44,632 bases of DNA from a virus. Under the pieces are notes generated by a model. The model had not been told where the DNA came from and did no database searches. It worked only from the letters and a program-made list of their open reading frames with translations. The position numbers and the translations under genes were made by a program. How positions within the stretch are numbered: position 1 is the stretch's first letter; every line of letters begins with the position of its first letter. Of this stretch, positions 1 through 44,632 are shown piece by piece. The stretch lies in UHGV virus genome UHGV-0179607. One strand, written 5' to 3'.

Positions 1-70
1 CGGGACAGGCGGGACAAAGCCCAGTCTTTCAGACTAGACGGGGGTCAATGGCCCCCCTCGTCTGAGACTG
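1..70. repeat. iterons plus conserved-stem hairpin upstream of the tape measure gene; copy 2 of the duplicated element
   Basis: Positions 1-18 carry two GCGGGACA units; 21-70 is an imperfect inverted repeat with the same arms as 28591-28640 but a different loop (TCAATGG vs TCTGGCA). Confidence 0.65.
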
Positions 71-138
71 AATAAGGTTTGTTTTAAATTCGCTGATACA
101 ATGACCGACGGCAACTGCATAAAAAGGGGGACTGCATA

Positions 139-2781
139 ATGGCAGATCAGGCAGCGGGCATCACGCTCAAGGCGGACGTCGCGCAAATTAAAACGGCTAA
201 TACTGTGCTGGACACATTTGCGCAGAAATCCGAGAACACAGAACAGAAAGTCAAAAAATTAAACGACACCCTCGGCAAGTCGAAAAAGGTCACGGGTGAC
301 GCCGCTGGCGGAATGGAAAAGTTAGCGACTGAATCTCAGCGTGCCGCCGACGGCATGACGAAACAGGAGCGACTCGCCAGCCGATTAGGCATGTCGACCA
401 AAAACCTGGGATTCGCATCGCGGAACGCCGCGTTCCAGTTACAGGATATCGCGGTTACGCTTGAGATGGGTATGCCGGTGCACCGCGTCATGCTTCAGCA
501 GCTACCACAGCTAACCGGCGCATTTGGCGGACTGGGTAACACGCTGCGTTATGTTGCAGGCTTCCTCGGCCCAGTAGGGATCGGACTTGCTGCCGTAACG
601 GCGACGTTAGGCGTGGGCGTGGCAATTACGTCACGGGCAGAGAACCAGGTAGCCGCGCTTAATAAGACGCTGGCGCTGTCCGGTAATATCTCCGGCCTCA
701 CAGCTAACCAGATCCTGGTGCTGTCCGAGAACGCCGAGCGCATGGGCGGGTCTTTTCGCAAGACGCGTGACACAATCCAGGCGCTGGCGGCGGCGGGTGT
801 GAAAGCGGGTGGTGACTTCGGCGCACTGGCGAAGGTAGTGAATGACTTCGCGAAGGTGTCCAGCCAGCCGATCGAGGATGTGGTAGCGGCGGTGGCGAAG
901 CTGTCAACCGACCCCGTTGGCGGACTGCGTGCGCTGGCGGATAAATATCACGTCGTAAACGAAGCGCAGATCCAGCAGGTACAGTCGCTCGTTGATGCGG
1001 GTCGTGAGACAGACGCAGTTGCGTTGGCTAACAAAACAGCCGCTGCGTCGTTCACCAGCATGACCAATGAGATCAAGGCGAACATGGGTACGCTTGAGCG
1101 ATCTATGAACGTCGTCACATCGGCAGCCAAATCAATGTGGGATGCCATCCTGGATGTGGGCCGCGCGCAGTCCTCCAATGAATCCGAGATGAAAGCGCGC
1201 GAATCACTGCAGCGGCTGACCACGGCTTACTATGCCGAGATGAAAGCGGTAAACGCTGCCGGTGGGGTAATGACTGAAGCGCAGAAAGCACGTATTAACA
1301 TGCTTTACAGCGAACTGGTCGCCCAGGAAAAAGTGGTGGCGTCGCTCACCCTGCGTAACCGTGCTGAGCGAGACAACGCCCGCGCCGCAGACGAATCCGC
1401 AAAGGCGAACGAGGAGGCCAACCGCACTGCCCGTGACCGCGCCGCGTTCGAGAAGGAATACGCCACCAACGCTAAGAAGCGCGCCGACGAGATCGCCCGC
1501 CTCAATTTGCTGAATAAGCGCGGCGTTATTGATGAGAAAGAACTTGCCGAGGCGGTGAAGCAGGTAAACGAGCGGTACAAAGACCCCGCCCCGAAGAAGG
1601 CTGCGGCTGTTCGCGTGGATGCCGGTATGAAAATGCTGGAAGTCGCACGGAGCGAACTGGCCCAGCTTCGAGAATCCGGCAAGCAGATCGAAGCCAACGC
1701 ATCTACGCAGACCCGCACGCAACGCGCTCAAGCGGCCTTAAACAAGCTGATTGCCGACAACGAACAGTTAATCGCGGCGAGCAAAGAAAGGGCGCTGACG
1801 GCGGCAGAGAAGCAGCAATTAGTCGAGTTCGGGCGCGTGAAGGAAGTGCGCGAGCAGATCGTCGAAGAAGCCAAATTGCTGGATGCGAAAGAGCAGCAGG
1901 TTAAGGCGCACGCGCAGATCGATGCCTTCGTTAAGAACCAGAACGCCGAACTAAAAGCCACCGCCGCGGGGTATGCGCTTTCCACTCGCGAAGCGGCAAA
2001 CCTGCGCGAAGAATTGCAGCTAATTGACCGCCTGAAGCGGGTTGGCGCTAACGATACCGATATTGACAAGGCGGTGTCTAAGCTGCGAGAAGTGCAGGAA
2101 GCACAGACCGGCGCTAACGCCTCGCTATGGGATGGATTCAGTCGCGGGCTTAAGGATAGCGTGGATGAAATGGGTAACGGATATACGCAGATGGCGACGC
2201 TAACGAAATTCACGTTCAGCGCTATGCAAGACACGATGAACGAGTTTTTCGAGACTGGCAAGCTGAACGCAAAGGATATGGTTAAGTCCATCCTTAGCGA
2301 ATTAATCAAGCTGGCTACCTCGCAGGCTTTCAAGTCGATCGTTAGCGCTTTCGGTGGCGACGGCGGCAAAAACGGATTGTTCGGCGCTATCTTCTCTGGC
2401 CTAACTAAGAATGCGGACGGCGGAGCGTACGCAGGAGGCAATCTCGCGGCCTATTCGGGGAAAGTGGTAAGCCAGCCTACCTTTTTCAGTTATGGCGTCC
2501 AGGCGTTCGCTAAGGGTGCAGGATTGATGGGCGAGGCTGGCCCCGAGGCCATCATGCCGCTGAAGCGCGGGCCGGACGGGAAACTGGGCGTTGCCGCGTC
2601 TGGCGCAGGCGGTGGTATGGTCGTGACGACTAACGTTTACACGGGGACCGGTAAGACGGATACCAGTGTTGGCGGGCCGGACCCACGTACCGCGCAGGCG
2701 TTCGGCAAGCAAATCACCGAGGCGGTGAAGGCCGAGATCGTGAAGGCGACGAAACCGGGTGGTGTACTTTACAAACGATGA
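139..2781 (+). CDS. tail tape measure protein
   Basis: 880 aa, largest ORF upstream of the L/K/I/J-like tail genes; long Ala/Gln/Lys-rich helical segments and Gly-rich C-terminal region; RBS GGGGG upstream of ATG at 139. Confidence 0.85.
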   Translation: MADQAAGITLKADVAQIKTANTVLDTFAQKSENTEQKVKKLNDTLGKSKKVTGDAAGGMEKLATESQRAADGMTKQERLASRLGMSTKNLGFASRNAAFQLQDIAVTLEMGMPVHRVMLQQLPQLTGAFGGLGNTLRYVAGFLGPVGIGLAAVTATLGVGVAITSRAENQVAALNKTLALSGNISGLTANQILVLSENAERMGGSFRKTRDTIQALAAAGVKAGGDFGALAKVVNDFAKVSSQPIEDVVAAVAKLSTDPVGGLRALADKYHVVNEAQIQQVQSLVDAGRETDAVALANKTAAASFTSMTNEIKANMGTLERSMNVVTSAAKSMWDAILDVGRAQSSNESEMKARESLQRLTTAYYAEMKAVNAAGGVMTEAQKARINMLYSELVAQEKVVASLTLRNRAERDNARAADESAKANEEANRTARDRAAFEKEYATNAKKRADEIARLNLLNKRGVIDEKELAEAVKQVNERYKDPAPKKAAAVRVDAGMKMLEVARSELAQLRESGKQIEANASTQTRTQRAQAALNKLIADNEQLIAASKERALTAAEKQQLVEFGRVKEVREQIVEEAKLLDAKEQQVKAHAQIDAFVKNQNAELKATAAGYALSTREAANLREELQLIDRLKRVGANDTDIDKAVSKLREVQEAQTGANASLWDGFSRGLKDSVDEMGNGYTQMATLTKFTFSAMQDTMNEFFETGKLNAKDMVKSILSELIKLATSQAFKSIVSAFGGDGGKNGLFGAIFSGLTKNADGGAYAGGNLAAYSGKVVSQPTFFSYGVQAFAKGAGLMGEAGPEAIMPLKRGPDGKLGVAASGAGGGMVVTTNVYTGTGKTDTSVGGPDPRTAQAFGKQITEAVKAEIVKATKPGGVLYKR

Positions 2782-2815
2782 TAAAATGGCCCTCACTACA
2801 ACGTGGGGGCTTTTT

Positions 2816-3415: not shown

Positions 3416-4200
3416 ATAAACTTTATCGCGAGGCGACGCGCTTTGACCCATCGGGTCGCGTTCGCCTGATTCACATTGACGCGCAGGACGTGGAACCAGG
3501 CGACGGTGCGATCGGCGCGGGCCATCACTATTTCCACTACTGCTTTATTCCGCACACTGCCGAGGATATTGCTGCCGCCGGTGGTGACGAGGATAAGCTA
3601 AAGCCTAAATCAATCTTCTTCGGCGGGCAGGAGTTCGAATTTTGGCCCTTCGATTTATCCGGCCTTAACTTCTCCACATCGACGGCGGCAGAACCGCAAC
3701 TAACAATCGTCGATATTGGCGGCATAATCACCCGGCTGTCGCTGAATCACGACCAGCTACTTGGCGCGAAGGTTGAGATCATTGATACGTTCGCGAAGTT
3801 CCTGGACAACGGGACAGATCCAGACCCGACGCAGAAACGAGTTCAGGAGTATTACATCGACTCGCAGGTCGGGCGCAATCCGGGCAAGCAAATCACCTTC
3901 GCACTATCCTCACCTGCGGATATGGAAGGGCAGGTCGTACCCCGTCGCCAAATCATGAATATGTGCGAATGGGCGCTCAACGGGAAGTACGCCAGCGGGG
4001 ACGGGTGCACCTGGAACCTTGCGAAGCCTGGTATCAAGTATTACGACGAGCGAGGTAATGAAGTCATCGCGATGAACATGGACCGATGCGGCGGCTGTTT
4101 GTCCGACTGTTATCTTCGATTCGGGCAAGGGCTTGCGGACCCTAAAGCGGCGGTGCTGGACTTCGGCGGCTTTCCGGGGTCCAGATTAATTAAGGGGTAG
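3412..4200 (+). CDS. minor tail protein, lambda gpL-like
   Basis: Position between gpM-slot and gpK-like genes; C-terminal Cys cluster (CEW...CTW...CGGCLSDC) as in Fe-S containing gpL-type proteins; start overlaps upstream stop. Confidence 0.65.
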   Translation: MNKLYREATRFDPSGRVRLIHIDAQDVEPGDGAIGAGHHYFHYCFIPHTAEDIAAAGGDEDKLKPKSIFFGGQEFEFWPFDLSGLNFSTSTAAEPQLTIVDIGGIITRLSLNHDQLLGAKVEIIDTFAKFLDNGTDPDPTQKRVQEYYIDSQVGRNPGKQITFALSSPADMEGQVVPRRQIMNMCEWALNGKYASGDGCTWNLAKPGIKYYDERGNEVIAMNMDRCGGCLSDCYLRFGQGLADPKAAVLDFGGFPGSRLIKG

Positions 4201-4202
4201 TT

Positions 4203-4943
4203 ATGTTAACGAAGAAGGTTAAAAGCGATATCGCCGCACACGTCGCGGCCTGTCTGCCGGAAGAAGCCTGTGGCCTGGTTGTCATGGTGGGTCGTAAGCA
4301 AGTGTTCGTCCCATGTCTGAACGTATTCGAAGACCCGACCGGCGTGCGCTCACGCAAAGACGCTTTTACGATTAGTGATATGGCCTGGATGGATGCCGAG
4401 GATATGGGCGACGTCGTGCGCGTAGTCCACTCGCATCCGGGCCAGCGAGAGCTTACCCCCTCACTGGGCGACGTTAACGGATGCAACGGCAGCGGCGTAG
4501 TCTGGACCATCACTAACGAATATGGCGATTTTATCGAGATCGACCCTGAAGACCCTCCGCTGGTGGGGCGTCGATTTGTTCTCGGAATTACGGATTGTTA
4601 CGGCCTCGTCATGGACTGGCACAAAAAGCAGGGCGTAAACCTGCCAGACTTCCGCGTGCCGTATAACTGGTGGGAGACAGGCGAAAATCTGTATATGGAT
4701 AATTGGTACGGTGCTGGCTTCAGGGAATGCGAGGAGAATACGCCGGGGGCAATGGTCATCATGCAGATTAGCGCGCCAGTGCCTAACCACGCCGGGATAT
4801 TCCTTCCAGGCAACCAACTCCTGCACCATATCTACGGCAGCTTGTCGAGCGTCGTACCCTTCCGGGCAGGATTTTTCCGTGACAATGTGGTTAAATGGGT
4901 CCGTCATAAAGACCTACCGGGGAATATCACAGAATGGCAATGA
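4203..4943 (+). CDS. tail assembly protein, lambda gpK-like (MPN/JAB plus NlpC/P60-like)
   Basis: HSHPG motif typical of JAB/MPN metalloprotease domains in the N-terminal half; C-terminal half with a conserved Cys/His; synteny L-K-I-J. Confidence 0.7.
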   Translation: MLTKKVKSDIAAHVAACLPEEACGLVVMVGRKQVFVPCLNVFEDPTGVRSRKDAFTISDMAWMDAEDMGDVVRVVHSHPGQRELTPSLGDVNGCNGSGVVWTITNEYGDFIEIDPEDPPLVGRRFVLGITDCYGLVMDWHKKQGVNLPDFRVPYNWWETGENLYMDNWYGAGFRECEENTPGAMVIMQISAPVPNHAGIFLPGNQLLHHIYGSLSSVVPFRAGFFRDNVVKWVRHKDLPGNITEWQ

Positions 4944-5551
4944 CAACGTTTAAATTGTACGGCGTCTTAGGGCGTCGATTCGGTAAAGTGCATAGGCTGG
5001 ACTGTTTCACACCGGGCGAAGGAATCACCGGCTTGTGTGTGAAGTTGCCGGGGTTACAAGACTTTTTAATGTCCGCCCACCTGGATAACATGATGTTCAA
5101 GGTGCGCAAAGGCGACCACACGATGACCGGCTATGATGAGCTGGGCGAGTTCCACGGCAACCGCGTAGTTACCATCGCGCCGGTTATGACGGGCGCAAAA
5201 AGAGGGTTGGGACAATTGCTGGCGGGTGTCGCGATCGTTGTGGCGTCGTTCTATACGGGCGGACTTGCTACTGCCGCTTTCGGGGCTTCGGCTGCAACCG
5301 CTGCCGCTATCGGAACGGCGACGTTTTCGTTCGGGATGTCGATGGCGCTGGGTGGCGTTATGCAATTGCTGTCGCCACAACCGAAAGGATTGCAGACAAG
5401 GCAGGACGTGGATAACAAAGCGTCGTACGCGTTCGGCGGGCCAGTGAACACGACCGCGCAAGGTACGGCGCTTGGTGTATTATGGGGCGAGCGTGAGATC
5501 GGCGGCGCTATTATTTCAGCCGGAATCGTAACCGAGGATTTGAACGAATGA
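4934..5551 (+). CDS. tail assembly protein, lambda gpI-like
   Basis: 205 aa between the K-like and J-like genes; hydrophobic Gly/Ala-rich C-terminal segment; overlapping start/stop with both neighbours. Confidence 0.6.
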   Translation: MAMTTFKLYGVLGRRFGKVHRLDCFTPGEGITGLCVKLPGLQDFLMSAHLDNMMFKVRKGDHTMTGYDELGEFHGNRVVTIAPVMTGAKRGLGQLLAGVAIVVASFYTGGLATAAFGASAATAAAIGTATFSFGMSMALGGVMQLLSPQPKGLQTRQDVDNKASYAFGGPVNTTAQGTALGVLWGEREIGGAIISAGIVTEDLNE

Positions 5552-8500
5552 CGATTATTTACGACGTCACGGGCCATAAAGGCGGCGGTGGCAAACAGCA
5601 CACCCCACAGGAGACACCCGATAGCCTGCATTCTCTGGCTAAAATCCGCATCTTGCTTGCGCTGGGAGAAGGTGAGTTCGAAGGTATTCCAGACTCTAAC
5701 GAATTACGGCGGCGCGTATATCTGGACGGAACACCGATCCAGAATGCAGACCTGTCTGAAAACTTCCCTGGGGCGCGTGTGGAGTTCCGCCCAGGAACAC
5801 AGCACCAGGATGTGATCCACGGATTTTCAGCGGTGGAAAGTGAGCAATCTGTCGGCGTAAAACTGGAAAACGGCACGCCGTGGGTGCGCCAGATTAACGA
5901 TACCAGTCTGGACGCCGTTCGCATTCGCATCGGCATTCCGGCCCTGTACACTAACGAAGATAACGGCGACCTGGTGGGCGGGCGCATCGACTATAAGATC
6001 GTTGTGTATACGGATAACGCCGATCCGCGTGAGTTCAGATTCGCCGCCGTTGGTAAAACAATGTCGCTATATGAGCGCGACCACCGCATCGAATTACCAC
6101 CGAACGTGAATACCGGCTGGCGAGTGGAGGTGCACCGCATAACGGCAGACTCCACATCGGCGAAAGTGGTTAATGATATCCGGGTGCAATCCATCACTGA
6201 GATTATCGACGCCCGCCTGCGTTACCCGCTAACCGCGCTGTTGTTTGTGGAGTTCGACGCTAAAGCGTTCCAGAACATCCCGCGCGTGTCCATTAAGTGC
6301 AAAGGTCGCAAAGTTCTAATACCGAACAACTACGACCCGATCAATCATACCTATTCCGGGGACTGGGACGGCACGTTTAAACGCGCATGGACGGATAACC
6401 CTGCGTGGCACTGGTACGATATTTGTATTACTGAGCGCTTCGGCCTCGGTCGGCGTATCAAACCGCAAATGCTAAACCGATACGCGCTCTACCAGATTGC
6501 GCAGCGCTGCGATCAGTTGGTCAGCGACGGCAACGGTGGTCGAGAAATCCGCTTTAAGAATGATATGTACATTCAGTCACAGACGGATGCCTGGACCGTG
6601 CTTAAGGATTTAGCCGCCATCTTCGCCGGAATGACCTGGTGGGGTAACCAGATGTTGAATATCGTCAGTGACCAACCGGTCGCAGCAGTGTCGCACACTA
6701 TCACCAACGCCTCGGTAATTGATGGTCGATTCGACTACGCATCTGGCAGCCAGAAAACTCGCTATTCCACATTTGCGGTCGCATACGGCAACCCGAAGAA
6801 CCACTATGAAGATGCCATCGCAACGGGGCAGCGCGTCGAACTGGTACGCCGCCATAAGATTAACCGTCTTGATATTACGGCGATCGGCTGTACGCGTGAA
6901 TCTGAAGCGCAACGCCGCGGGCACTGGGCACTAATTTCCAACCAGCTTGACCAGCAAGTTAGTTTTAAGGTTGGCATGGAGGGGCTATTCTTTATTCCGG
7001 GTAGCGTAGTCGCGATCGCAGATACAAACATTTCTGGCGGCTTCGAGACACGCGGCGGTCGCCTGTTGTCGGACCCTGGCACGCGTACAGTGCTTAACAC
7101 GGACAGCGAAATCACGTTCCGCCCAGGTGATAAATTCCTGGTACGCACCGATAGCGGTAATGTAGAGACTCGCGAGATCGCCAGCGTCAACGGCAACAAG
7201 GTTACGCTAAAAACCGCACTGGACGCCGACCCGATTCCTGATCAGCCGTTTTGCGTCGATGGCAACGATATCCAGTTGCAGAAGTTCCGCATCACCGACC
7301 TGGAATATGACGACTCTACCAGCACTTTTTCAGTGCGCGGGATCGAGTACAACGATAGCAAATATGATGCCGTTGATAATGGCGCTCGCCTTGATCCGGG
7401 CATCTTTACTCAAGTGCCCGACGGTGTAATGAAGGGGCCAGAGTCCGTAACCATCACCCCGTCGCAGATTTCATCGCAAGGCCAGCTAATCACCAACGTG
7501 GATATTGTATTCCCTCCGGTGAAGGACGCCGTGGTGTATGAAATCCAGTGGCGACGTACCAGCTTGCAGAATATGAAAATCCAGTGGGGTAACGACTGGG
7601 TGAACATCCCCCGCACGGCCTCGAACGGCGCGCACATCCCTAACGTGTTCTCCGGTAACTACCAGGCACGCGTCCGCGCAATCGGTATGGGCGAGATTTC
7701 ATCCCCGTGGGTGTCGTCTGCCATCACGCCGATAGAAGGTCGTCTCGGCGGGCTTAACGCGCCTATCATCACCAACGCGATTTCGGGCCTCCACCAAATT
7801 TTGTGGAAGTGGAACCACAACAACGCCGCGACGGATATTTCGTACACCGAGCTTGAAGTGCGCAAGACCGGTGAAACGGAGTGGAAATTTCTTACCAACG
7901 TCCCATATCCGGGGGCGGAGTATGCGCAAACGTCACTGGAGTTCGGGATCTATCAGCAGTTGCGCGCCCGTGTAGCGGATAAAATCGGCAACCTGTCGGA
8001 CTGGTCGGCCCCGTTTGAAGGGCAGGTGAGTGACAAAGTTGACGAATACATGAAGGGGCTTGATGACGAGTTCTTGACTTCCGAGGACGGTAAACGCTTC
8101 CAGGAAGCGATCGACACCATGCCGCAAGGTATCTATGAGTCTATGCTTACGGACGCCCAGCAGCTATTCAATGCCCGCGCCGAGTATAAAGGGATTTATG
8201 CGGAAATCACGGTGGCGTATAACGTGGCGGCGGACGCGCATAAAGCCGTAGCGCAACTGGAAACGTTGATCGGCACGCGCCTTGATGACGCTGAAGCATC
8301 AATCCACACGTTGCAGACTGCGCAAAGCACACATGAACAAGCGTTCGCCCAGTACCAGCAAACTGTTGCCGCTAAGTTTTCGGAACAGGAAGCAGCCATC
8401 CAGCAGGTACAAACGGCAACGGCGGACGTGGCTGGCGCGCTGGCAGAGTATAAGACCCAGGTCGCGGCGCAGTTCGGACAGCAGTCCGCAGCTATCGAGC

Positions 8501-26057: not shown

Positions 26058-28322
26058 ATGAGCTTAATTAAATTCGCTGTTACAAGACCCGCTAAAAAAG
26101 GCGAAAAAGCCAGGGCGGAAAACTTCCAGATGACCACCGATGAATTTTTCGAATTTATCAAAGATGCGAAAGAAATCTCCTCGGTGCATATCAACAAGAC
26201 GGAAGATAAAGCCGAGTATGCGCGCCGCAAGCGTAAGGCCGACGGCATCGTGGCGTATACCAGTGACGGATTGCGTCGTAAGACCAGTGCGGTGGACCGC
26301 TCGATCCTGTTCTTCGATATTGACCGTACCGACACCCGCACCCTACGCCGCTGCCGTAAGGCGTTCATTGACGCGGGGCTGGAACACGTATTTCACACCA
26401 CAACCGGCGACCGTCACCCACTGAAAGGCGGCACGCGTTGCGCTCGATTCCTGGTGCTCACTGACAAGCCTGTACCGGCTGAAGACCTGGGCCGCGTCCA
26501 GTATGCACTATTACACCAACTGGGTCTGTCAGATGTGGACTTCGACGATTGCACGAAAGACACAAACCGCCTGATGTACCTGCCACACCAGCAGTCTGTT
26601 ATTAAGTGCCACTACGGCAAGCGCGCCCGCGTCCGTCGTCTGCTTCGCCTGGCGGATAAGTTGGGCGCGGAAAAAGAGGAAGTACGCCGCGAGCTTACCC
26701 AGGGCGACGACGCAGTGGCAGACGGCATTCTGGACTGGTGCTTCCAGGCAGGATTCGAGGAGTTATCTTCCGGGCGGGGCTATGAAGTGCCGTGCCCTAA
26801 CGAACATCTACACAGCGGCGAAGGGTCCACCGCTATTATGGTTAAGGACGGCGAGATCCGTTTCAAGTGCATGCACACAGGCAACGAGTGTTGCTCGGAA
26901 CTGAATAGACACCAGCACCTGGCGCTGCGTCTTATCGGGATCCCGGACCACCTGAACGTCGAGCCACACAATATGTCCCGTAAGCAAATCGCCGCCATCC
27001 TTCCGGGGCTGGACGACGAGGAAGTCGAATCCTTATATGAACATATTGTTGATGCGGTTGGCGACGGCGAAGAATACGGCGTGTGCACCGATGCGGATCT
27101 GGATAACGAGCCGGTTGCGCTGTTCAGTAAGCACGACCCGATTATCGAGGGGTTGATTAACTTTAAATCGACCTGGTACATGGCGGGTGAGTCGAATATA
27201 GGTAAGTCTTTCTACGTGCTGGGCCAGATGGGCGCGGTTGCTGCCGGTATTCCGTTTGGCGGTGCGAAGGTCGTCCAGTCTCATTGCTTCTATTTCGACG
27301 CGGAAGGTGGCGAAGCCTCTAACCAGCGTAAAGAAGCATTGCAGATTAAATATGAGCACGACCTGGACAAGCTGCACATTATCGATCTGCAGTCACGCGG
27401 CTGGGATATCACCAGCAAATCGGGCTTGCGCGAAGTTATCAGCTTTATCAACCGCACCGCTAACGGCGAACCGGTTGGCCTGGTGGCGTTCGACTCACTC
27501 AACCAGACTGTTGCGTTGCGGTCCGCTGATGCTAAACCGTTCGACGAGAACAACGCCAGCGATATGGGTGAAGTGGTCAAAGCGCTGAAGGCCATCGCGG
27601 AAAATACAGGTGGTAGTGCGGGCGTCATCCACCACCCGGCTAAAGGTGCAAACGGCAGCAGAACGCCACGCGGGTCCGGCGCGCTGCATGGTGCTGTCGA
27701 TTCTGCGTTCTTCCTGGAACAGCCGGACGACAACCAGCCCGGACAATTGAACCTGTATCACGAAAAGTCACGTAACGGCATCAAGCAAGCGCCGCGCGGC
27801 TTCGTCCTGCTCAAGTGCAAGGTGAAGGTGGATCTCCGCAAGTCAGAAGCGTTCGAGGCGCACCAGTCCACCAGCACCGGGCCAGACTTCGGCGACGTGG
27901 TTGCCGGATGGGACGTCAAGCCGATTGCCTCCACGCCACGCGACGAGACTCTCTACCTCGTACCGGTTGCCCTGGCACCTTTCGCTATTGAACAGGCGAA
28001 GGCGGCGGGCAAGGCCGCGGTTAAGGAAGAGAACACCGCCGGACCGCGCAACGAAAAAGAGAAAGTGCTTTATGCGGCACTGGAAAAACTGATGGAAGAT
28101 AACCCGGACCATACTGGATTCAGTAAATCGGCAATCGTCCGCCAGGCGGGACTCGCAAAAGGGGGCACTTCGACGAAGGCAATCGACGATATGGTGGAGC
28201 GCGGGGTAATAGGTTTTTATACAGATCCGCACACCGGGGCCATCTATGGGTCTTCTAATTTGGTCATCAAATCGGATATCCCTATCACGCTTTCCGCGAC
28301 CGATGACGATTTAAAAGATTAA
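26058..28322 (+). CDS. primase-polymerase (AEP-like) / P-loop replicative helicase fusion protein
   Basis: N-terminal ILFFDIDRTD resembles the AEP/prim-pol DxD motif; central Cys/His cluster (CPNEHLHSG...CMHTGNECC); P-loop MAGESNIGKSF of RecA/DnaB-like (AAA_25-type) helicases; 754 aa. Confidence 0.55.
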   Translation: MSLIKFAVTRPAKKGEKARAENFQMTTDEFFEFIKDAKEISSVHINKTEDKAEYARRKRKADGIVAYTSDGLRRKTSAVDRSILFFDIDRTDTRTLRRCRKAFIDAGLEHVFHTTTGDRHPLKGGTRCARFLVLTDKPVPAEDLGRVQYALLHQLGLSDVDFDDCTKDTNRLMYLPHQQSVIKCHYGKRARVRRLLRLADKLGAEKEEVRRELTQGDDAVADGILDWCFQAGFEELSSGRGYEVPCPNEHLHSGEGSTAIMVKDGEIRFKCMHTGNECCSELNRHQHLALRLIGIPDHLNVEPHNMSRKQIAAILPGLDDEEVESLYEHIVDAVGDGEEYGVCTDADLDNEPVALFSKHDPIIEGLINFKSTWYMAGESNIGKSFYVLGQMGAVAAGIPFGGAKVVQSHCFYFDAEGGEASNQRKEALQIKYEHDLDKLHIIDLQSRGWDITSKSGLREVISFINRTANGEPVGLVAFDSLNQTVALRSADAKPFDENNASDMGEVVKALKAIAENTGGSAGVIHHPAKGANGSRTPRGSGALHGAVDSAFFLEQPDDNQPGQLNLYHEKSRNGIKQAPRGFVLLKCKVKVDLRKSEAFEAHQSTSTGPDFGDVVAGWDVKPIASTPRDETLYLVPVALAPFAIEQAKAAGKAAVKEENTAGPRNEKEKVLYAALEKLMEDNPDHTGFSKSAIVRQAGLAKGGTSTKAIDDMVERGVIGFYTDPHTGAIYGSSNLVIKSDIPITLSATDDDLKD

Positions 28323-28482: not shown

Positions 28483-28639
28483 GCGGGACAAAAAGCGGGA
28501 CAGACCAGGGGCGGGACAAAGCGGGACAGCACCCCTGTCCCGCCCCGGATGACGCGGCCTGGCGAGGAGCGGGACAGCGGGACAGCACCCCAGTCTTTCA
28601 GACTAGACGGGGGGTCTGGCACCCCCCTCGTCTGAGACT
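28483..28639. repeat. iteron array (GCGGGACA x6-7, one inverted) plus ~48-bp conserved-stem hairpin; copy 1 of a duplicated element
   Basis: GCGGGACA at 28483, 28495, 28511, 28521, 28569, 28578 and inverted at 28536; large imperfect inverted repeat 28591-28640; same architecture at the window ends. Confidence 0.7.
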
Positions 28640-28799
28640 GCATAAAATCCAGGATTGCATAATACACGGCAACAAGATGCGAATTGCGGTCGTCGATGAA
28701 CTAGGCAACCAATGCGAGTTGCAGAATGGTGGGTGAAAAATGCAGTTTGCAGTTGCAGCAGATAGCGATCAACTTTTTCATACGCGTGATTAATATTGG

Positions 28800-28828
28800 T
28801 TGCACCCACTCCAGCACCCTGCTATATT
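28800..28828 (+). promoter_or_regulatory. sigma70-like promoter with conserved leader
   Basis: TTGCAC - 17 bp - TATATT followed by GGTTGCACACCAACA; the 22-mer 28822-28843 recurs inverted at 38936-38957. Confidence 0.4.
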
Positions 28829-32771: not shown

Positions 32772-33344
32772 ATGAACAAAAGGGCTTATATCATGGCAGA
32801 AATCAAAGTTAAGGGCCGACGCGCCAAACTGGACGGTAGAGTGGCAGTTACCCCGCGCCGTAAACCAGGCGAGCAAACAGAACATACCAATCTCGGACCT
32901 GAAATCGAGTACGGAAAGCGCCGCAAAGGCGGTAAATGTGGACGCCCTACGGACTACCGATCCGTTTACTGCGACCAGCTTCGCCGCTATTTTGCCGACG
33001 CAGACGCCTGGCAGGTCAACTACTCCGATAAAGGCGCTGCGCAAGTAATCCCTCGCAACAAAATGCCAACCTTCGGTCGATTTGCCGCGGAAATCGGTGT
33101 GGGCGTAGCTTGCCTGTATCGCTGGGCGCGCGCACATGAGGAGTTTGCCGAGGCGATGGCGGACGCAATGGAGTTGCAGAAAACTTTCCTGATGGAAGCT
33201 GGTGGCGTGACCATCGCGGCGGGCTTCGCGACCTTCCTGCTTAAAGCAAACCACGGCGTCCGCGACGATGTGCCGCTGGATGACGACGAAGATGATAACG
33301 GCGACGTCGTTGTCGAACCTACCGGCAAAGGCCAGGGCGAATAA
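32772..33344 (+). CDS. terminase small subunit
   Basis: Directly upstream of and overlapping the large terminase gene (TAATG); basic N-terminus, putative HTH PTFGRFAAEIGVGVACLYRWARAHEEF, acidic C-terminus; start could also be ATG 32793. Confidence 0.6.
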   Translation: MNKRAYIMAEIKVKGRRAKLDGRVAVTPRRKPGEQTEHTNLGPEIEYGKRRKGGKCGRPTDYRSVYCDQLRRYFADADAWQVNYSDKGAAQVIPRNKMPTFGRFAAEIGVGVACLYRWARAHEEFAEAMADAMELQKTFLMEAGGVTIAAGFATFLLKANHGVRDDVPLDDDEDDNGDVVVEPTGKGQGE

Positions 33345-34729
33345 TGCGTAACTATGCGGCGGAACACCGCGCACTTGAACGCGCGATCGCAAAGCGCAAC
33401 CGACCACCACGCCCGACACGTGTTGCACAGGCGGTGCGTCTTTACCAGCCTGATTGCTTGCCGCACCAGGTTGAACTATTGCGCGACACAAAGACTAAAA
33501 TCCTCGGCCTGTGTTCCGGCTTCGGTGGTGGAAAGTCGTGGGTAGCGGCGCGTAAGGTCATCCAGCTTCTGACACTGAACCCAGGTCATGACGGCATCGT
33601 GACCGAGCCGACTATCCCACTCCTGGTTAAAATCATGTACCCGGAATTGGAGAAGGCTTTCGACGAGGCTGGCTTCCGGTGGAAGTTCAACAAGCAGGAC
33701 AAGATCTATAGCGTTCTGGTGAAAGGCAAATTGACCCGCGTTATCTGCGAGTCAATGGAGAACTACACCCGCCTAATCGGGGTTAACGCCGCGTGGATTG
33801 TTGCCGACGAGTTCGACACCACGAAGCAAGACGTCGCAATGGCGGCTTATCACAAATTGCTCGGTCGTCTGCGTGCAGGACTTGTCCGCCAGTTCGTCAT
33901 CGTGTCCACGCCGGAAGGCTTCCGGGCGATGTATCAAATTTTCGAAGTGGAGAAGGATAGCCAAAAACGGTTGATCCGGGCGAAGACCACCGACAACCAC
34001 CATCTACCGGCAGACTTTATCGACACGCTTCGCAGCCAGTACCCGGCTAACCTGATTGATGCGTACCTGAACGGCATGTTTGTCAACCTCACATCTGGCG
34101 CGGTATACAAGATGTTCAACCGTGAGGAGAACGCCAGCACCGAGGAAGTGCAACCGGAAGACACGCTGATTATCGGTATGGACTTTAACGTCACTAAAAT
34201 GGCGGCGGTCGTGTATGTCAGACGGCAGCGCATCACAGAGAACAAGGAGTTCCGCGACGAGATTCACGCCGTGGATGAATTCGTGGACCTGTTTGATACC
34301 CCGGCTATGATTGAAGCGATCGAGGAGCGCTACCCCGATCATTGCGCTGCCGGTCGTGTTGTCGTTTACCCGGATAGCAGTGGTAAGTCTCGTAAGACTG
34401 TAAACGCTTCGTCGTCCGATATCGCGCAACTGGAAGACGCGGGCTTCGAGGTGGAATACGACAGCGTTAACCCACCTGTGAAAGACCGATTGATCGCGAT
34501 GAATACGATGATGTGCAACTCGAAGGGCGTGCGCCAGTATTTTGTCAACCTGGATAAATGCCCTACACTAGCGAAATGCCTGGAACAGCAGGTGTACGAC
34601 CTGAAGAAAGGCGAACCGGATAAAACTGCCGGTGTGGACCACATGAATGACGCAGCGGGATACCCTATTGCGCACTTGTTCCCTGTGATTCGTCCGATCG
34701 CCGTTGTTCCAACTGTAGACTTCTACTAA
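33344..34729 (+). CDS. terminase large subunit
   Basis: Walker A LCSGFGGGKSW and Walker B-like IVADEFD in the N-terminal ATPase part; 461 aa; followed by the portal gene. Confidence 0.85.
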   Translation: MRNYAAEHRALERAIAKRNRPPRPTRVAQAVRLYQPDCLPHQVELLRDTKTKILGLCSGFGGGKSWVAARKVIQLLTLNPGHDGIVTEPTIPLLVKIMYPELEKAFDEAGFRWKFNKQDKIYSVLVKGKLTRVICESMENYTRLIGVNAAWIVADEFDTTKQDVAMAAYHKLLGRLRAGLVRQFVIVSTPEGFRAMYQIFEVEKDSQKRLIRAKTTDNHHLPADFIDTLRSQYPANLIDAYLNGMFVNLTSGAVYKMFNREENASTEEVQPEDTLIIGMDFNVTKMAAVVYVRRQRITENKEFRDEIHAVDEFVDLFDTPAMIEAIEERYPDHCAAGRVVVYPDSSGKSRKTVNASSSDIAQLEDAGFEVEYDSVNPPVKDRLIAMNTMMCNSKGVRQYFVNLDKCPTLAKCLEQQVYDLKKGEPDKTAGVDHMNDAAGYPIAHLFPVIRPIAVVPTVDFY

Positions 34730-39871: not shown

Positions 39872-40972
39872 ATGTCTTTAACAGTGTTCCAGCGTAAACT
39901 CGTTACCGCGGTTACGCAAATGATCCCCGATAACCTGAACGTGTTCAACGCCGCCGCTAACGGCGCTGTTGTTCTCGGTACGGGTGAAGTGCTGAAGGAC
40001 GTTGTAGAAAAAATGTCCGTAGGCTTGATCGCCAACCTCGTTACCGACCGTAACGCCTATGCCCCTGTCGGTACTCCGGCGACCGCAAAAGTGCTGGCGC
40101 GTATGCTGACCAACTCCGTTAACCTGTCTGCGAAAGTGGGTCCGGTGGCGATCACTAAGGCTATGATGGCTAAAATCGAAACCAACGTTAACAGCGTTGC
40201 GGCTGAGATTGCGGCACAGGCTACTCAAGCGATTATGCTGCATTACCTGAAGGCTGGCATCGGCGCAAGTAAAGCGGCGATCGAAAGCAACGCAGCGGCA
40301 AAATACACCCAACCGGCGCGCGTTGACGGCGTTGGCGGTCGTACCTTCCCGACCCTGGCAGACTTCCCGCTGGCGGCTTCTAAGTTCGGCGATCAGGCGT
40401 CTTTGATTAAGTCCTGGTTTATGGACGGCGTTACCTGGGCAAACTTCATTGCGTACCAGGCACTCCCTTCCGCTGAACAGGTATTCGCAATTGGCGATCT
40501 CCAGGTAATGGGTGATGGCCTGGGCCGTCGCTTCATTATCTCCGATGCCGCTGCCGATGCTATGGGCACGGGTAACATGCTGGGTCTGGTCCCTGGCGCG
40601 GTTGCAGTTACCACCAACGGTCTTGATATGCTGGCGCAGGAGAAAGGCGGTAACGAGAACATCGAACGTTGGTGGCAGGGCGAGTTCGACTTCAACGTGG
40701 CGGTTAAAGGCTATCGTCTGAAGGCGTCCGCACGTACTCCGGTCGAAGGTGTTCGCTCGTTCAAACTGTCCGACATCACCACTTCCGCTAACTGGGAACT
40801 GGACCAGGGCCAGGTAGACAACGCCCCTGCAACCGTGCAGGACGTTGGCGCTGTTGGTGATGGCGATACTAAAGGCCGTCGTAAGACCCAGGCCGCGCAG
40901 GAAGTGCCGACCCGTCACATCAAGGAAACGGCAGGCGTACTGGTTACGCTTACCCCGACCAAAGCGTCCTGA
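39872..40972 (+). CDS. major capsid protein
   Basis: 366 aa after the scaffold gene; strong RBS (AAAGGA); followed by a strong terminator; the equal-length antisense ORF is treated as a shadow. Confidence 0.7.
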   Translation: MSLTVFQRKLVTAVTQMIPDNLNVFNAAANGAVVLGTGEVLKDVVEKMSVGLIANLVTDRNAYAPVGTPATAKVLARMLTNSVNLSAKVGPVAITKAMMAKIETNVNSVAAEIAAQATQAIMLHYLKAGIGASKAAIESNAAAKYTQPARVDGVGGRTFPTLADFPLAASKFGDQASLIKSWFMDGVTWANFIAYQALPSAEQVFAIGDLQVMGDGLGRRFIISDAAADAMGTGNMLGLVPGAVAVTTNGLDMLAQEKGGNENIERWWQGEFDFNVAVKGYRLKASARTPVEGVRSFKLSDITTSANWELDQGQVDNAPATVQDVGAVGDGDTKGRRKTQAAQEVPTRHIKETAGVLVTLTPTKAS

Positions 40973-40991
40973 TCTACGCACATCCCAAATG

Positions 40992-41016
40992 GGCGGGCAT
41001 AAGCCCGCCTTTTTTA
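40992..41016 (+). terminator. rho-independent terminator after the major capsid gene
   Basis: Stem GGCGGGC / GCCCGCC, loop ATAA, followed by TTTTTT. Confidence 0.65.
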
Positions 41017-41030
41017 TAGGAGTGAATCTA

Positions 41031-41531
41031 ATGTATGGCGACCCGCAAACATTTGTTGTTTATGCCGCGGCGCGAGGCGTTGAAATTACGCAGAGCGACG
41101 CAACGCGACACCTTACCATTGTTAATGACTTCCTTAACGGCATCGACTGGATCGGCGAACAAGCGGACCCGACCGGAATTGACGCATGGCCCCGCGTCAA
41201 CTACCCGTCAGACGGTAAGCCGGTGCAAAACACGCTTACTGAAGATTTGACAGTAGTTCCGGCGGGGCAGATTGTAGACTTCGCATCAATCCCTGTTGCC
41301 GTTGAGCAAGCAGTTTACCGGCTGGCAATGTTGGTGGCGGACGATGTTGATATTTCTCCGGTCAGCGATGGAAAGGAGACTATCCGTGAAACGGTAGGCC
41401 CGATCACGATGGAGTATGACGCCGCGACGATTGGTAGCGGTGTGTCTTTCCCGTGGTGGGATGGCTTGCTGGGCTACTGGGTGAATGTAGACGGCAACGC
41501 AGCGGGTAATTTTGACGTATTCCGGGGGTGA
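41031..41531 (+). CDS. head-tail connector/adaptor protein (putative)
   Basis: 166 aa from ATG 41031 with AGGAG SD; first gene after the capsid terminator; call from synteny only. Confidence 0.4.
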   Translation: MYGDPQTFVVYAAARGVEITQSDATRHLTIVNDFLNGIDWIGEQADPTGIDAWPRVNYPSDGKPVQNTLTEDLTVVPAGQIVDFASIPVAVEQAVYRLAMLVADDVDISPVSDGKETIRETVGPITMEYDAATIGSGVSFPWWDGLLGYWVNVDGNAAGNFDVFRG

Positions 41532-41532
41532 T

Positions 41533-41649
41533 ATGAATCCTGCATTACTGGCGGCTATTATCGCCGCAAATACTAAACGCCAACCGGAACAGGAACCAGC
41601 GCCAGAACCGGAACCACCGGTACAGGAGGATGAAAATGGCGGGCTTTAA
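41533..41649 (+). CDS. small Pro/Glu-rich protein (not in ORF track)
   Basis: 38-aa ORF MNPALLAAIIAANTKRQPEQEPAPEPEPPVQEDENGGL; tightly packed between neighbours. Confidence 0.3.
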   Translation: MNPALLAAIIAANTKRQPEQEPAPEPEPPVQEDENGGL

Positions 41650-41989
41650 TTACACGGGATTAAAGCGGAAAGTCAATCCGCTGATTAAAAAGTTCGGCAT
41701 GACCGTTACGGTTACGCGTCCTGGGTCGGTTGACCGCGTAGACGGCGACGAAGTGGTCATCCCTGCGACCTCGTTTGACGTCATCGGGCTTCGCGAGGAG
41801 TACAAGCCGAGCGAGATCGACGGTACGCGTATCGTTGCCGGGGATGTGAAGTTTTTATGCCAGGCCGTCAAGGAAGTAAAGGTCGGAGATTTGGTTAGCC
41901 TGAACAATACAGACTACCGGGTTATCAACCCCAACCCCCTGCAACCGGCGGGCATTACCATGCTGTTTCAATTACAGCTAAGGGGCTAA
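41636..41989 (+). CDS. head-tail joining protein (putative)
   Basis: 117 aa from ATG 41636 with GGAGG SD; synteny. Confidence 0.4.
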   Translation: MAGFNYTGLKRKVNPLIKKFGMTVTVTRPGSVDRVDGDEVVIPATSFDVIGLREEYKPSEIDGTRIVAGDVKFLCQAVKEVKVGDLVSLNNTDYRVINPNPLQPAGITMLFQLQLRG

Positions 41990-41990
41990 C

Positions 41991-42584
41991 GTGGCTGAGG
42001 TCTACTCATTCGCGGCCACCATTGCAACATGGGTGGATAAGACGAAGGAGAACAACGATAAGGCGGTGCGGGCGTACGGTATGCAAATACTCGGACGCCT
42101 TATTGAGATCTCCCCGGTGGGCGACCCTCGCCGGTGGAAGATTAACAAGGCTTATGCGATGGCCCGCCAGCACGCGAACAAGGTGAACGCCGCACAGCGC
42201 CGCAAGAATGGCGGCAAACTGAAGCGCGGGCAGAAGAAGCACGCCAGTGTGCTCATCTCATTTAAAACTAAAAACGGCAACGTCACGTTCCGCCAACGTG
42301 GCTGGGCTGCGAAGAATTACACCGGCGGACGCTTCCGGGGGAACTGGCAGGTTACGTTCGACCGCCCGGCTGTCGGCGCTATTGACCGCGTGGACAAGGC
42401 CGGAACGGCGACATTAGCCGCGGGGCGTGAAGTGCTGGCGCATTACGATTCCGGTGAATACGGGTCTATCTGGTTTACTAACAATGTGCCGTATGCGCAG
42501 CGACTTGAGTATGGCTGGAGTAAACAAGCGCCCGCGGGGATTGTTCGCGTCGTAGCGGCTGAAATTAATTCTAAGGTGAAATAA
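41991..42584 (+). CDS. head-tail joining / tail completion protein (putative)
   Basis: 197 aa, GTG start with AGGGG SD; synteny. Confidence 0.4.
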   Translation: MAEVYSFAATIATWVDKTKENNDKAVRAYGMQILGRLIEISPVGDPRRWKINKAYAMARQHANKVNAAQRRKNGGKLKRGQKKHASVLISFKTKNGNVTFRQRGWAAKNYTGGRFRGNWQVTFDRPAVGAIDRVDKAGTATLAAGREVLAHYDSGEYGSIWFTNNVPYAQRLEYGWSKQAPAGIVRVVAAEINSKVK

Positions 42585-43006
42585 TGAGCAATACTCTAAT
42601 CCGCAAGGCGCTTAACCGCGTGGTTGAAGAATTAGCGGTTAGCCTGAGCACTAGCCAGCGTCCGATCCAGGTTAACTGGGAGAACGTGAGCGGCGACCAC
42701 GCTAACGGCAATGGTGTATACCTGGAGCCGTACTTGCTACCGGCCCCGACCCAGTTTGTTGGCTTTCAGCAGAAAGGCCGGATCTATGCAGGCGTTTATC
42801 AGGTTGCAGTAGTGTTTCCCGCGGGCACGGGGACACAGTACGCGAGCGAACTGGCGGACTCCATCGCCACGTCGGATAAGTGGCAGGCAGTCAAGATCGC
42901 TGGCGCAGCGTTCCAGCTTCAGGACGCGCCATACACCAGTTCCGTGATTGAGGATGTAGACCGCGCACGCATCGTGGTTACAGTCCCCTACACATGTTGC
43001 GCCTGA
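42584..43006 (+). CDS. tail terminator protein (putative)
   Basis: 140 aa immediately upstream of the major tail gene; synteny. Confidence 0.4.
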   Translation: MSNTLIRKALNRVVEELAVSLSTSQRPIQVNWENVSGDHANGNGVYLEPYLLPAPTQFVGFQQKGRIYAGVYQVAVVFPAGTGTQYASELADSIATSDKWQAVKIAGAAFQLQDAPYTSSVIEDVDRARIVVTVPYTCCA

Positions 43007-43067
43007 TTTGGCGCTATTCTGCGCGTGCTGTATCATTGAACCGTATATCTAAACAGGAGCGTTCATT

Positions 43068-43793
43068 ATGGGTTATCAACTTCCTAACGGGTCTAGCGTC
43101 CAGATTGGGTCCGTACTGGGCAACGGTATCGCTGTTACGGCAGCTACCAACGCCGCCGCGTCGATCTCTGATCTTACGAAAGGGTGCGTTATCACCTGCG
43201 CGGCTTCTCATGGCTTGAAAGTTGGCGACGTGGTTATGTTCACTAAAACCCCGTGGGTCCGTGCGCTGAACCGCGCGTTCATCGTGGGTAAAGTGGCGAC
43301 TAACGACGTTACACTGGCGCGCTTCGATACTCAAGACGTCACCAAATATCCTGCCGGTGCTTTTGGGGCGGGAACCCCAGGCGAAGTGGTGAAAGTGTCG
43401 AATTTTATCGACTTCCCGTATATCACTAACGTTGCCGTGTCGGGTGGCGACCAGCAGACCACCACCTTCCAGCCGTTGCAGGTGAATACCGCGATCAGTC
43501 TGAACACCACGAAAAACCCGTTGGTCCAGACCTACACTTTCACCCACGACGAAGAAGACCCGATCCGCCCGATTCTGGAAGACCTGGACGACACACAGAA
43601 AACCACTGTGATTAAGTTCACCAACCCGGCAGCGGCAAGCGGCAAAGGTGAGATCCGCATTTACCCGGCTAAGGTGTCTTTCCAGAAGATTCCATCGGCT
43701 GAAGTAAACAACGTGGAGACGGTGGAGTCCACTCTGACCATGCAATCCGATATGGTTATTTACCGTAAGGACCTGGTTGAAGCGCTGTCGTAA
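43068..43793 (+). CDS. major tail protein
   Basis: 241 aa; AGGAG SD; positioned before the G/GT chaperone and tape measure genes; followed by an attenuating terminator. Confidence 0.65.
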   Translation: MGYQLPNGSSVQIGSVLGNGIAVTAATNAAASISDLTKGCVITCAASHGLKVGDVVMFTKTPWVRALNRAFIVGKVATNDVTLARFDTQDVTKYPAGAFGAGTPGEVVKVSNFIDFPYITNVAVSGGDQQTTTFQPLQVNTAISLNTTKNPLVQTYTFTHDEEDPIRPILEDLDDTQKTTVIKFTNPAAASGKGEIRIYPAKVSFQKIPSAEVNNVETVESTLTMQSDMVIYRKDLVEALS

Positions 43794-43823
43794 TTTGGTC
43801 GCTTAAATAGCGGGTGTTAATAT

Positions 43824-43846
43824 GGGGCCAGTACGGCCCCTTTTTT
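43824..43846 (+). terminator. rho-independent terminator/attenuator after the major tail gene
   Basis: Stem GGGGCC / GGCCCC, loop AGTAC, followed by TTTTTT. Confidence 0.6.
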
Positions 43847-43862
43847 ATTGGAGAATACTACA

Positions 43863-44225
43863 ATGGCAAAAGCACCACTCTTCACACTTGACCCTAAGCC
43901 GACCTTTAAGCTGCCGATTGAGATCCCGCGCCCCGGTGAAAACGAACCGGGGAAAATGACGTTTACCGTGCGCCACCGCCCGATCGACGAATTTTCGCAG
44001 ACCATGCAGGATACTGAGCGCAAGTTGTCGGAGTATGACGACAATGACCCTGACGGCTTTAACGTTATGGTCGAGGCCATAATGCACGTCGCTGAAGGCT
44101 GGAATCTGCCGGACGAATTTAACGCGGAGAACGTCCGCCGCCTGGTGGTCAACTACCCGCGCGCGTTCGGCGTGTTCCACACGTCGTACTATCTCGAACT
44201 GATGGGGCTGCGTGAAAAAAACTAA
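43863..44225 (+). CDS. tail assembly chaperone (lambda gpG-like)
   Basis: 120 aa from ATG 43863 with GGAG SD; acidic; ends just after a slippery A7 run. Confidence 0.6.
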   Translation: MAKAPLFTLDPKPTFKLPIEIPRPGENEPGKMTFTVRHRPIDEFSQTMQDTERKLSEYDDNDPDGFNVMVEAIMHVAEGWNLPDEFNAENVRRLVVNYPRAFGVFHTSYYLELMGLREKN

Positions 44226-44539
44226 TTGAGGCGGCGCGACGCTTTTATGGCCCGCCGCCACCCTCCGAAGATTTAGCCGCAAGTTTATGGGGTGCGGCCC
44301 CCGAAGATGTTTGCCCGCCGGTTGCACTATGGCCCGACAATGCGAAGGTAGTCGCAGTCTTCACGGATTGCGCCACGCAATGGCGTACCGGATTCGGTGG
44401 CGCATACGGCATCGACTACGGCGTACTGGAATGGTTATTTAATATGCACGGCATCGAAAACGCGCAACGTGCGTTTAAAGATATCAAGCTAATGGAACGC
44501 GTTGCGCTGGATGAAATGGCGCGGCAGAACCCCGCATAA
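44216..44539 (+). CDS. tail assembly chaperone GT, -1 frameshift extension (gpT-like part)
   Basis: The -1 frame is open for 107 codons from the slippery site G_AAA_AAA_C (44214-44222) to TAA 44537-44539 and has no ATG near its 5' end. Confidence 0.55.
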   Translation, partial: KKLIEAARRFYGPPPPSEDLAASLWGAAPEDVCPPVALWPDNAKVVAVFTDCATQWRTGFGGAYGIDYGVLEWLFNMHGIENAQRAFKDIKLMERVALDEMARQNPA

Positions 44540-44542
44540 TGG

Positions 44543-44632
44543 AGCGGGACAGGCGGGGCGTCCCGTTTTGTCCCGCACCTCTAAAACTGCATATTTACTC
44601 ACCACAATTGCATAAATTAAAAGCGGGACAGG
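44543..44632. repeat. iteron-containing region at the window end, continuing at 1-70 with the conserved hairpin
   Basis: GCGGGACAG at 44543-44551 and 44623-44631, inverted copy at 44569-44576; the window then starts with CGGGACAG GCGGGACA followed by a copy of the 28591-28640 hairpin. Confidence 0.65.

Follow-up and report, generated by a model that had tools for sequence, protein, structure and literature searches.

A metagenomic Dhillonvirus genome whose given ends fall inside a box array and are very probably computational

The Dhillonvirus genomes of HK578, SO-1, SSL-2009a and phiEco273, headful-packaged and circularly permuted siphoviruses, form the group with which the present sequence was compared. 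Two further kinds of described system are relevant to the place where this sequence begins and ends. The first consists of breaks and bubbles that arise in the assembly graph at repeats when circular phages are assembled. The second consists of replication origins located next to the gene of their own primase-helicase. In P4, an array of short boxes in two orientations is found immediately 3' of the primase-helicase gene: the crr, made up of ten type 1 repeats pointing in either direction, begins 46 nt after the stop codon of alpha, and ori, 4.5 kb away, holds a second set. Origins directly downstream of a primase-helicase or Rep gene are also found in plasmid pRN1, Bordetella phage BIP-1 and PIME elements, with the pRN1 origin and the candidate BIP-1 origin both located just 3' of the primase-helicase gene (PMC4234260).

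The window, i.e., the whole stretch of 44,632 nt that was analysed, shared with the Dhillonvirus genomes its gene order, its length class of about 44-45 kb, and the non-coding stretch that separates G/T from the tape measure gene. Collinear blastn blocks, of 83-99% identity overall, covered 40,816 of the 44,632 nt when the window was compared with phiEco273 (92-99% identity) and 37,556 nt when it was compared with HK578, and the order of both genomes was collinear with the window all round the circle. Moreover, 158-159 phage records matched the window ends, nearly all of them Escherichia/Shigella Dhillonvirus. Both its nucleotide similarity to the type members over the whole genome and its synteny with them thus place the window in the genus Dhillonvirus, and it is a nearly complete genome of an HK578/SO-1-like coliphage, mapping as a circle. 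The closest matches in the phage collection were 99.8% identical for the right end (the identity also measured between this end and phiEco273) and 98.3% for the left end; these matches belonged to different phages, so the genome is mosaic, and a record identical to the window was not found in this collection. Pfam confirmed TerS, TerL, the portal, the major capsid protein, the tail tube, G, T, the tape measure, the primase-helicase and the lysozyme. These genes, together with the collinearity with phiEco273 and HK578, bear out the initial annotation, which had recognised the gene content of a whole phage. G is connected to T by the heptamer A AAA AAC (44216-44222), a canonical -1 slippery site that lies in the correct frame and gives a fusion product of 226 aa. 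As had also been stated, the tail operon crosses the ends, with G/T on the right and the tape measure gene on the left (Table 1). Unlike HK578 and most other records, for which the small terminase gene (window 32772) is the conventional start, the window opens inside the tail operon.

The GenBank records PQ843332.1, MG065648.1 and OQ221563.1 comprise phage P-GXEC-L2P5 and two entries labelled Campylobacter phage A144 and Acinetobacter phage NJ01. Phage P-GXEC-L2P5 (88,607 nt, five matching places) looks like a concatenated, double-length assembly. The two labelled entries share about 94-95% identity with coliphage Dhillonviruses, which points to contamination or to wrong host labels.

Table 1. 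Position, strand and supporting evidence of the features discussed in the text (window coordinates).
Feature	Position	Strand	Details and evidence
Initial 9-mer CGGGACAGG (right breakpoint), then box GCGGGACAA	1..17	+	Sequence, alignment
Stem-loop CAGTCTTTCAGACTAGACGGGGG-loop-CCCCCCTCGTCTGAGACTG	22..70	+	DNA fold -13.4 kcal/mol, z -3.5; alignments
Tail tape measure gene	139..2781	+	Pfam TMP_2, Tape_meas_lam_C
Primase-helicase	26058..28322	+	Pfam AAA_25 core, conserved C-terminal domain of ~100 aa
Box array (8 boxes, 28483-28585) and stem-loop (28591-28640)	28483..28640	+	Sequence alignment
TerS and TerL	32772..34729	+	TerS ATG at 32772 aligns to HK578 position 1; Pfam Terminase_6N/6C
Tail chaperone G	43863..44225	+	Pfam Phage_TAC_4 / DUF1799 (G+T)
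T frame	44225..44539	+	Stop codon TAA at 44537-44539
First box cluster after T-frame stop	44544..44576	+	GCGGGACAG, palindrome GGCGGGGCGTCCCG then TTTT, inverted box GTCCCGC
A/T-rich spacer	44586..44622	+	CTGCATA and TTGCATAAAT motifs; promoter-like by eye
Terminal 9-mer CGGGACAGG	44624..44632	+	Identical to window 1-9; left breakpoint of long/short junction

The 3' end of the window reads ...TTAAAAGCGGGACAGG (in a longer view, ...CATAAATTAAAAGCGGGACAGG) and its 5' end reads CGGGACAGGCGGGACAAAG... (in a longer view, CGGGACAGGCGGGACAAAGCCC...). The end bases quoted by the initial annotation were correct, and both ends lie in a genuine array of GGGAC-type boxes. The identity of the last 9 nt with the first 9 nt was the sole suffix-prefix overlap of the window. 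Positions 1..17 hold the last two boxes that the array has before the tape measure gene. The terminal 9-mer is located in a 12-bp hairpin, AAAGCGGGACAG-GGGTG-CTGTCCCGCTTT, within its left arm and its loop, where the 3' end of the window falls; this hairpin is complete in the parent contig (DNA fold -14.9 kcal/mol, z -5.8), and its right arm is absent from the window.

This parent is a MEGAHIT contig of 45,017 nt, ena:ERZ27227205:k141_22467 (L036), in which the window occupies positions 258-44889. It was traced through an exact-protein look-up; 33- and 40-mers specific to the window had no match in IMG/VR or in the JGI metagenomes. Window 1-5781 matched contig 258-6038 and window 40068-44632 matched contig 40325-44889, both with 100.000% identity; for contig 6039-40324, identity to the window rests on the matching lengths. 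Given these exact end identities and a contig span (44889-258+1) equal to the window length of 44,632 nt, the window is the contig trimmed by 257 nt and 128 nt. Both window ends were read through in the contig, which continues beyond the 3' end with GGTGCTGTCCCGCTTTGTCCCGCCCCC... (longer view, GGTGCTGTCCCGCTTTGTCCCGCCCCCAAAATG...) and precedes the 5' end with ...GGGTTTTAGCCGAT (longer view, ...GCCGCGGGTTTTAGCCGAT). Host flanking sequence in a larger contig, the finding that the initial annotation had named as decisive against a complete genome, was looked for: the 385 nt of the contig outside the window were all phage sequence, and the idea of a prophage with host flanks was therefore rejected. 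Moreover, the last 112 nt of the contig are identical to its positions 121-232, so that the assembly closes on itself, without unique ends, as a circle of 44,785 bp, i.e., the window plus 153 nt.

In this long form, 384 nt separate the T-frame stop codon from the tape measure start codon, and the 153 nt missing from the window carry five boxes, a promoter-like spacer and a hairpin. When the joined ends were used as a 600-nt query, all of the GenBank relatives among the matches listed (60/60) aligned as two pieces, spanning 742-908 bp (mostly 751-765) and thus exhibiting about 150-165 extra bp at the junction. In phiEco273, Psq-1 and SSL-2009a, about 153 nt were found between the last and first bases of the window. 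Thirty fetched loci spanned the junction region; in each of the 26 distinct sequences, the anchor-to-anchor distance was 430-452 nt, versus the approximately 287 nt that a short form would give. All other Dhillonvirus genomes compared thus have the 153 nt that the window lacks at its ends. Since the long form was present in the main path of the contig and in every relative, the genome corresponds to a circular map of 44,785 bp. The initial proposal of a complete circular genome was right as to a whole phage mapping as a circle and wrong as to completeness, the window being 153 nt short of the circle. Circularising the record by a simple join of its two ends is to be avoided, as this would create an unsupported junction of three units and omit these 153 nt.

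Beside the long form, a second version of the junction was observed, in which a 162-bp deletion fuses two CGGGACAGG direct repeats into one. Positions 1-122 of the contig carry this junction on the opposite strand: their reverse complement consists of window 44577-44632 and window 10-75, joined at one shared copy of CGGGACAGG, and differs from the main path by one SNP, located in a loop. The same fusion was found 33 nt from the end of a SPAdes contig of 44,218 nt (ERZ1034962 NODE_129), which came from an unrelated strain in another sample. It is exactly at the first and last bases of the window that the long version and the short one separate; the window thus holds what the two share, which accounts for the 9-mer at each of its ends. 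A perfect inverted repeat of 32 nt lies within the deleted segment. This repeat, or the 12-bp hairpin, could favour polymerase slippage in vivo or a template switch while the library is prepared, and the short form is either a real minority genome or a template-switch artefact. At the 5' tip of the contig (L036:1-122), the strand-switched piece meets the forward sequence at a 2-nt microhomology (between GAGGT and CCCGCC). Some reads or lower-k contigs must back this chimeric or foldback structure.

We conclude that the window was very probably cut from a circular-mapping metagenomic Dhillonvirus assembly, its ends being computational and not physical. These ends coincide, to the base, with the two points at which the versions of one non-coding region diverge, and the cut itself would stem from a software step. 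The strand-switched chimera at the 5' tip counts against this explanation, since the assembly is to that extent artefactual. The locus resembles the assembly-graph breaks known from circular phages in that the window ends fall at repeat copies, with a paralogous module 16 kb away, a 32-nt inverted repeat and two junction alleles, and in that several independent assemblies break within the same 400 nt. Indeed, other assemblies stop in this region of about 400 nt (L038, L040 and L041), and the GenBank record BEK2-2 starts inside it; three assemblies other than that of the window end inside the stem-loop at 22..70. The region between G/T and the tape measure gene is thus a recurrent break point in short-read assemblies of the genus. 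The locus differs from the known assembly-graph breaks in that the end overlap is only 9 nt and not k-1, which indicates that the window is not a raw assembler contig but was trimmed from one. Of the two possibilities raised by the initial annotation, an assembly break at a repeat was retained, and a true physical end did not withstand the read-through in the parent contig and the relatives.

An alternative is that the short form is a real genome, a circle of 44,623 bp whose array lost 162 bp when the two CGGGACAGG repeats recombined or replication slipped between them, and that a circularisation step closed the assembly through the short junction and left the 9-nt overlap untrimmed. The exact coincidence of the window ends with the short-junction breakpoints agrees with this scenario, as does the recurrence of an identical junction in an independent strain, sample and assembler. 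Moreover, the single SNP at the contig tip suggests a separate haplotype, and 9-nt direct repeats flanking a segment with a 32-nt perfect inverted repeat form a classic slippage substrate. However, both sightings were within 33-75 nt of a contig end, one of them in the strand-switched chimera, and fit a minor graph branch, or a library or PCR template switch across the hairpin, better than a dominant genome. In addition, the contig circularises along its main path by way of the long form, and complete records or contigs with an internal short form were not found. We therefore regard a short-form genome as an unlikely source of the window.

That the window ends are true virion termini, either a cos site or short terminal repeats with the array as the terminase recognition site, seems very improbable. 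Repeated boxes beside the cleavage site are known from the cosB and pac regions of other phages, and the 9 nt common to both ends would be compatible with such a site. However, both ends were read through in the same assembly, more than 150 relatives are continuous at this place, and the overlap of 9 nt is too short for a direct terminal repeat. The duplicate of the array adjoins the primase-helicase gene and not the terminase genes. Neither a terminal repeat or cohesive sequence nor the same ends in relatives could be identified, and full-length metagenomic contigs of the genus opened at many different positions. Published data on the genus also mostly indicate headful packaging with permuted ends: PhageTerm predicted headful packaging for Opt-212 (PMC9022532) and circular permutation in four out of five Dhillonviruses, with fixed termini scored for one Dhillonvirus (PMC8407724). 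A 10-nt cos site has been claimed for EE09 (PMC10673088), but its sequence, ATCTTAAGGG, was absent from the window. By extension from these relatives, the virion DNA is most likely headful-packaged, terminally redundant and circularly permuted, and would have no fixed end at this place. The pac site would be expected in the neighbourhood of TerS and TerL; TerL matched Terminase_6N and 6C (E 5.9e-14 and 1.4e-6), and TerS exhibited weak, sub-threshold matches to P22 GP3_package and Sf6_terminase.

Closure of the window as it stands, into a circle of 44,632 bp whose junction would carry GCGGGACAG three times in tandem (containing AAAAGCGGGACAGGCGGGACAGGCGGGACAAAGCC), is scarcely credible: its one argument is the literal concatenation of the ends, which does yield the three units initially described but does so with the 9-mer shared by both ends, while the three-unit junction (searched as a pattern with a spacer of 0-9 nt) had no match in IMG/VR, JGI metagenomes or GTDB genomes, was absent from the aligned relatives and every other sequence examined, and is contradicted by the parent contig. 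The sole relevant junction match in the JGI metagenomes and GTDB genomes was of the two-unit form. The pattern also matched a Desulfovibrio MAG from groundwater (JACRDI010000001.1, L171:7075-7101), where just two boxes, AAGCGGGACAGGGGCGGGACAAAGCC, lie by a tRNA-like sequence; there was no helicase homologue within 8 kb, and this match was therefore treated as chance, probably coincidental.

The finding on the genome ends is itself ordinary, and the array in which they fall is of greater interest. Allowing at most one mismatch, GCGGGACAG occurred 23 times in the window versus 12.3 expected, a number reached in none of 100 shuffles, and the copies clustered at 28483-28585 and at the two window ends. 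The restored 384-nt region and the sequence just before it contained 14 GGGAC/GTCCC cores, 12 of them in CGGGAC-type boxes, and 18 out of the 30 CGGGAC hexamers of the restored genome were located in the two bins at 28 kb and the bin at 44.5 kb. The boxes are thus short, clustered, present in both orientations and far above chance, as in an iteron-type origin. Box cores were 97.4% conserved, versus 88.0% for the other columns of the region (27 sequences).

Between the boxes, the restored region exhibited two A/T-rich spacers with TTGCATAAA motifs, the second of which lies in the missing 153 nt, as well as hairpins of inverted boxes and a conserved stem-loop. The stems of the latter, at 22..70, are invariant among relatives and its loop is variable; a paralogue of this structure is located at 28591-28640. 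In HK578, the palindrome GGCGGGGCGTCCCG-TTTT of the first cluster is annotated as a rho-independent terminator, and this cluster gave a DNA fold of -15.0 kcal/mol (z -3.9). Scans of the restored region for sigma-70 promoters and terminators did not return more sites than in shuffles; the spacer at 44586..44622 was not flagged by the sigma-70 scan, and the sole terminator-like match was the 12-bp hairpin, on the minus strand. An Rfam scan of the region in two relatives gave only chance-level matches to a microRNA and a fluoride riboswitch, well below gathering scores.

The module at the window ends was 84% identical, over 174 nt, to the module at 28 kb, about 16 kb away, and in phiEco273 the two paralogous modules have exact 25-mers in common. 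[quoted passage not shown] To see how arrays and genes were distributed more widely, IMG/VR was scanned for three closely spaced CGGGACA boxes, which gave at least 120 stretches, with 117 loci analysed; most of these loci, among the matches listed, were unrelated to Dhillonvirus. A primase-helicase homologue was scored as paired when its stop codon was within -172 to +329 nt of the array start. Among the matches listed, such a homologue accompanied irregular arrays in two orientations at 36 out of 57 loci, versus 3 out of the 60 control loci with regular or one-orientation arrays, i.e., the irregular arrays were coupled to the gene of the putative initiator. The irregular CGGGACA arrays were spread over unrelated viral contigs (L052-L168) with a GC content of 0.31-0.72 and often ended in a palindrome such as GGGACACCCCTATAGGGGTGTCCC; examples are L068:9313-9423, L078:3186-3337 and L093:1939-2049.

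Members of this primase-helicase family have in common an AAA_25 core, found rather than SF3 in 20 out of 22 members, and a C-terminal domain, some 100 residues long, in which one arginine is near-invariant. Their N-terminal primase modules are of different types, namely Prim-Pol, Toprim or D5-like. No Pfam family matched the C-terminal domain, a search with a 170-aa C-terminal fragment of the primase-helicase returned one partial protein only, and a single-sequence AlphaFold model of the domain was unusable (pLDDT 37.5). A partial protein encoded on a 284-nt contig of Photobacterium gaetbulicola (P0001, NCBI) was 95% identical to the C-terminus of the Dhillonvirus primase-helicase; it probably represents phage DNA contaminating that assembly.

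The resemblance to P4 lies in the position of a two-orientation array of short boxes immediately 3' of the primase-helicase gene and in the presence of a second, distant array, here the 174-nt paralogue with 84% identity, about 16 kb away instead of 4.5 kb. However, the boxes differ, with type 1 repeats in P4 versus the CGGGACA box in the window phage, and the P4 alpha helicase is of the SF3 type, whereas the window phage has an AAA_25 (RepA-like) core. No homology of the candidate initiator to P4 alpha was detected, the hhalign comparison with the profile of the 22-member family giving a probability of 2.8% (E 0.016, 37 columns). As judged from these comparisons, the system is P4-like in layout and not a member of that group by descent. 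The element of pRN1 is without iterons and its protein has a Prim-Pol and SF3 architecture; moreover, the origins of pRN1, BIP-1 and PIME elements are single and, unlike the array described here, not duplicated in a structural operon. In full-text literature, the box sequence was found in unrelated primers only, and a description of the array was not found in the literature on Dhillonvirus and HK578. The array appears to represent a hitherto undescribed cis-element that is widely distributed and accompanies primase-helicase genes.

On the basis of position and co-occurrence, i.e., the pairing of gene and array and the ori/crr layout of P4, both arrays are probably origin iterons bound by the primase-helicase, with the copy at the window ends as a second site. 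The cumulative GC skew tracked gene orientation only and was uninformative on the origin. A transcriptional role of the arrays is possible, since both modules head late gene blocks and carry promoter-like motifs. A more comprehensive reading, which we offer tentatively, is that the array at the window ends forms one half of a P4-like bipartite origin, that the CGGGACA box and palindrome are the origin signature of the family, and that the 162-bp deletion reflects real instability. Under this bipartite reading, the phage's own primase-helicase would serve both origin halves. The signature would consist of the CGGGACA box followed by a palindrome of two inverted boxes, and would go with helicases whose primase modules have been swapped, within a large, uncharacterised family of phage primase-helicases having the C-terminal domain in common. 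The recurrence of the 162-bp deletion in two independent samples would then represent instability of the array and not an artefact. If the array were confirmed as an origin, it would provide a simple sequence signature with which to locate origins in many uncultured phages.

Several short motifs were also observed in and around the two modules. Paired (A/C)TGCATAA motifs, 17-18 nt apart, are present at 116-139 (CAACTGCATAAAAAGGGGGACTGCATAATGG) and at 28639-28662, the latter pair coming after the paralogous stem-loop. At the left end of the window, the tape measure gene has its ribosome-binding site and start codon enclosed by two TGCATAA motifs, at 116 and 133, and such pairs could act as a translational or transcriptional control site. 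An extended -10-like element, TGATACAAT, is located at window 94-102, 37 nt before the start codon of the tape measure gene; it was invariant in all aligned relatives. This suggests that, beyond the terminator-like hairpin past the T frame, a promoter of their own may serve the distal tail genes. Finally, the motif ATTGGTTGC(A) was found in 14 copies versus 0.3 expected, mostly at intergenic or promoter-like positions (10267, 13932, 15837, 15854, 18796, 25516, 28334, 28388, 28423, 28705, 28795, 28826, 29533 and 38945). Three of these copies lie just after the primase-helicase gene, and the 20-mer CTATATTGGTTGCACACCAACA is common to the copies at 28826 and 38945; the motif is probably a phage promoter or operator.
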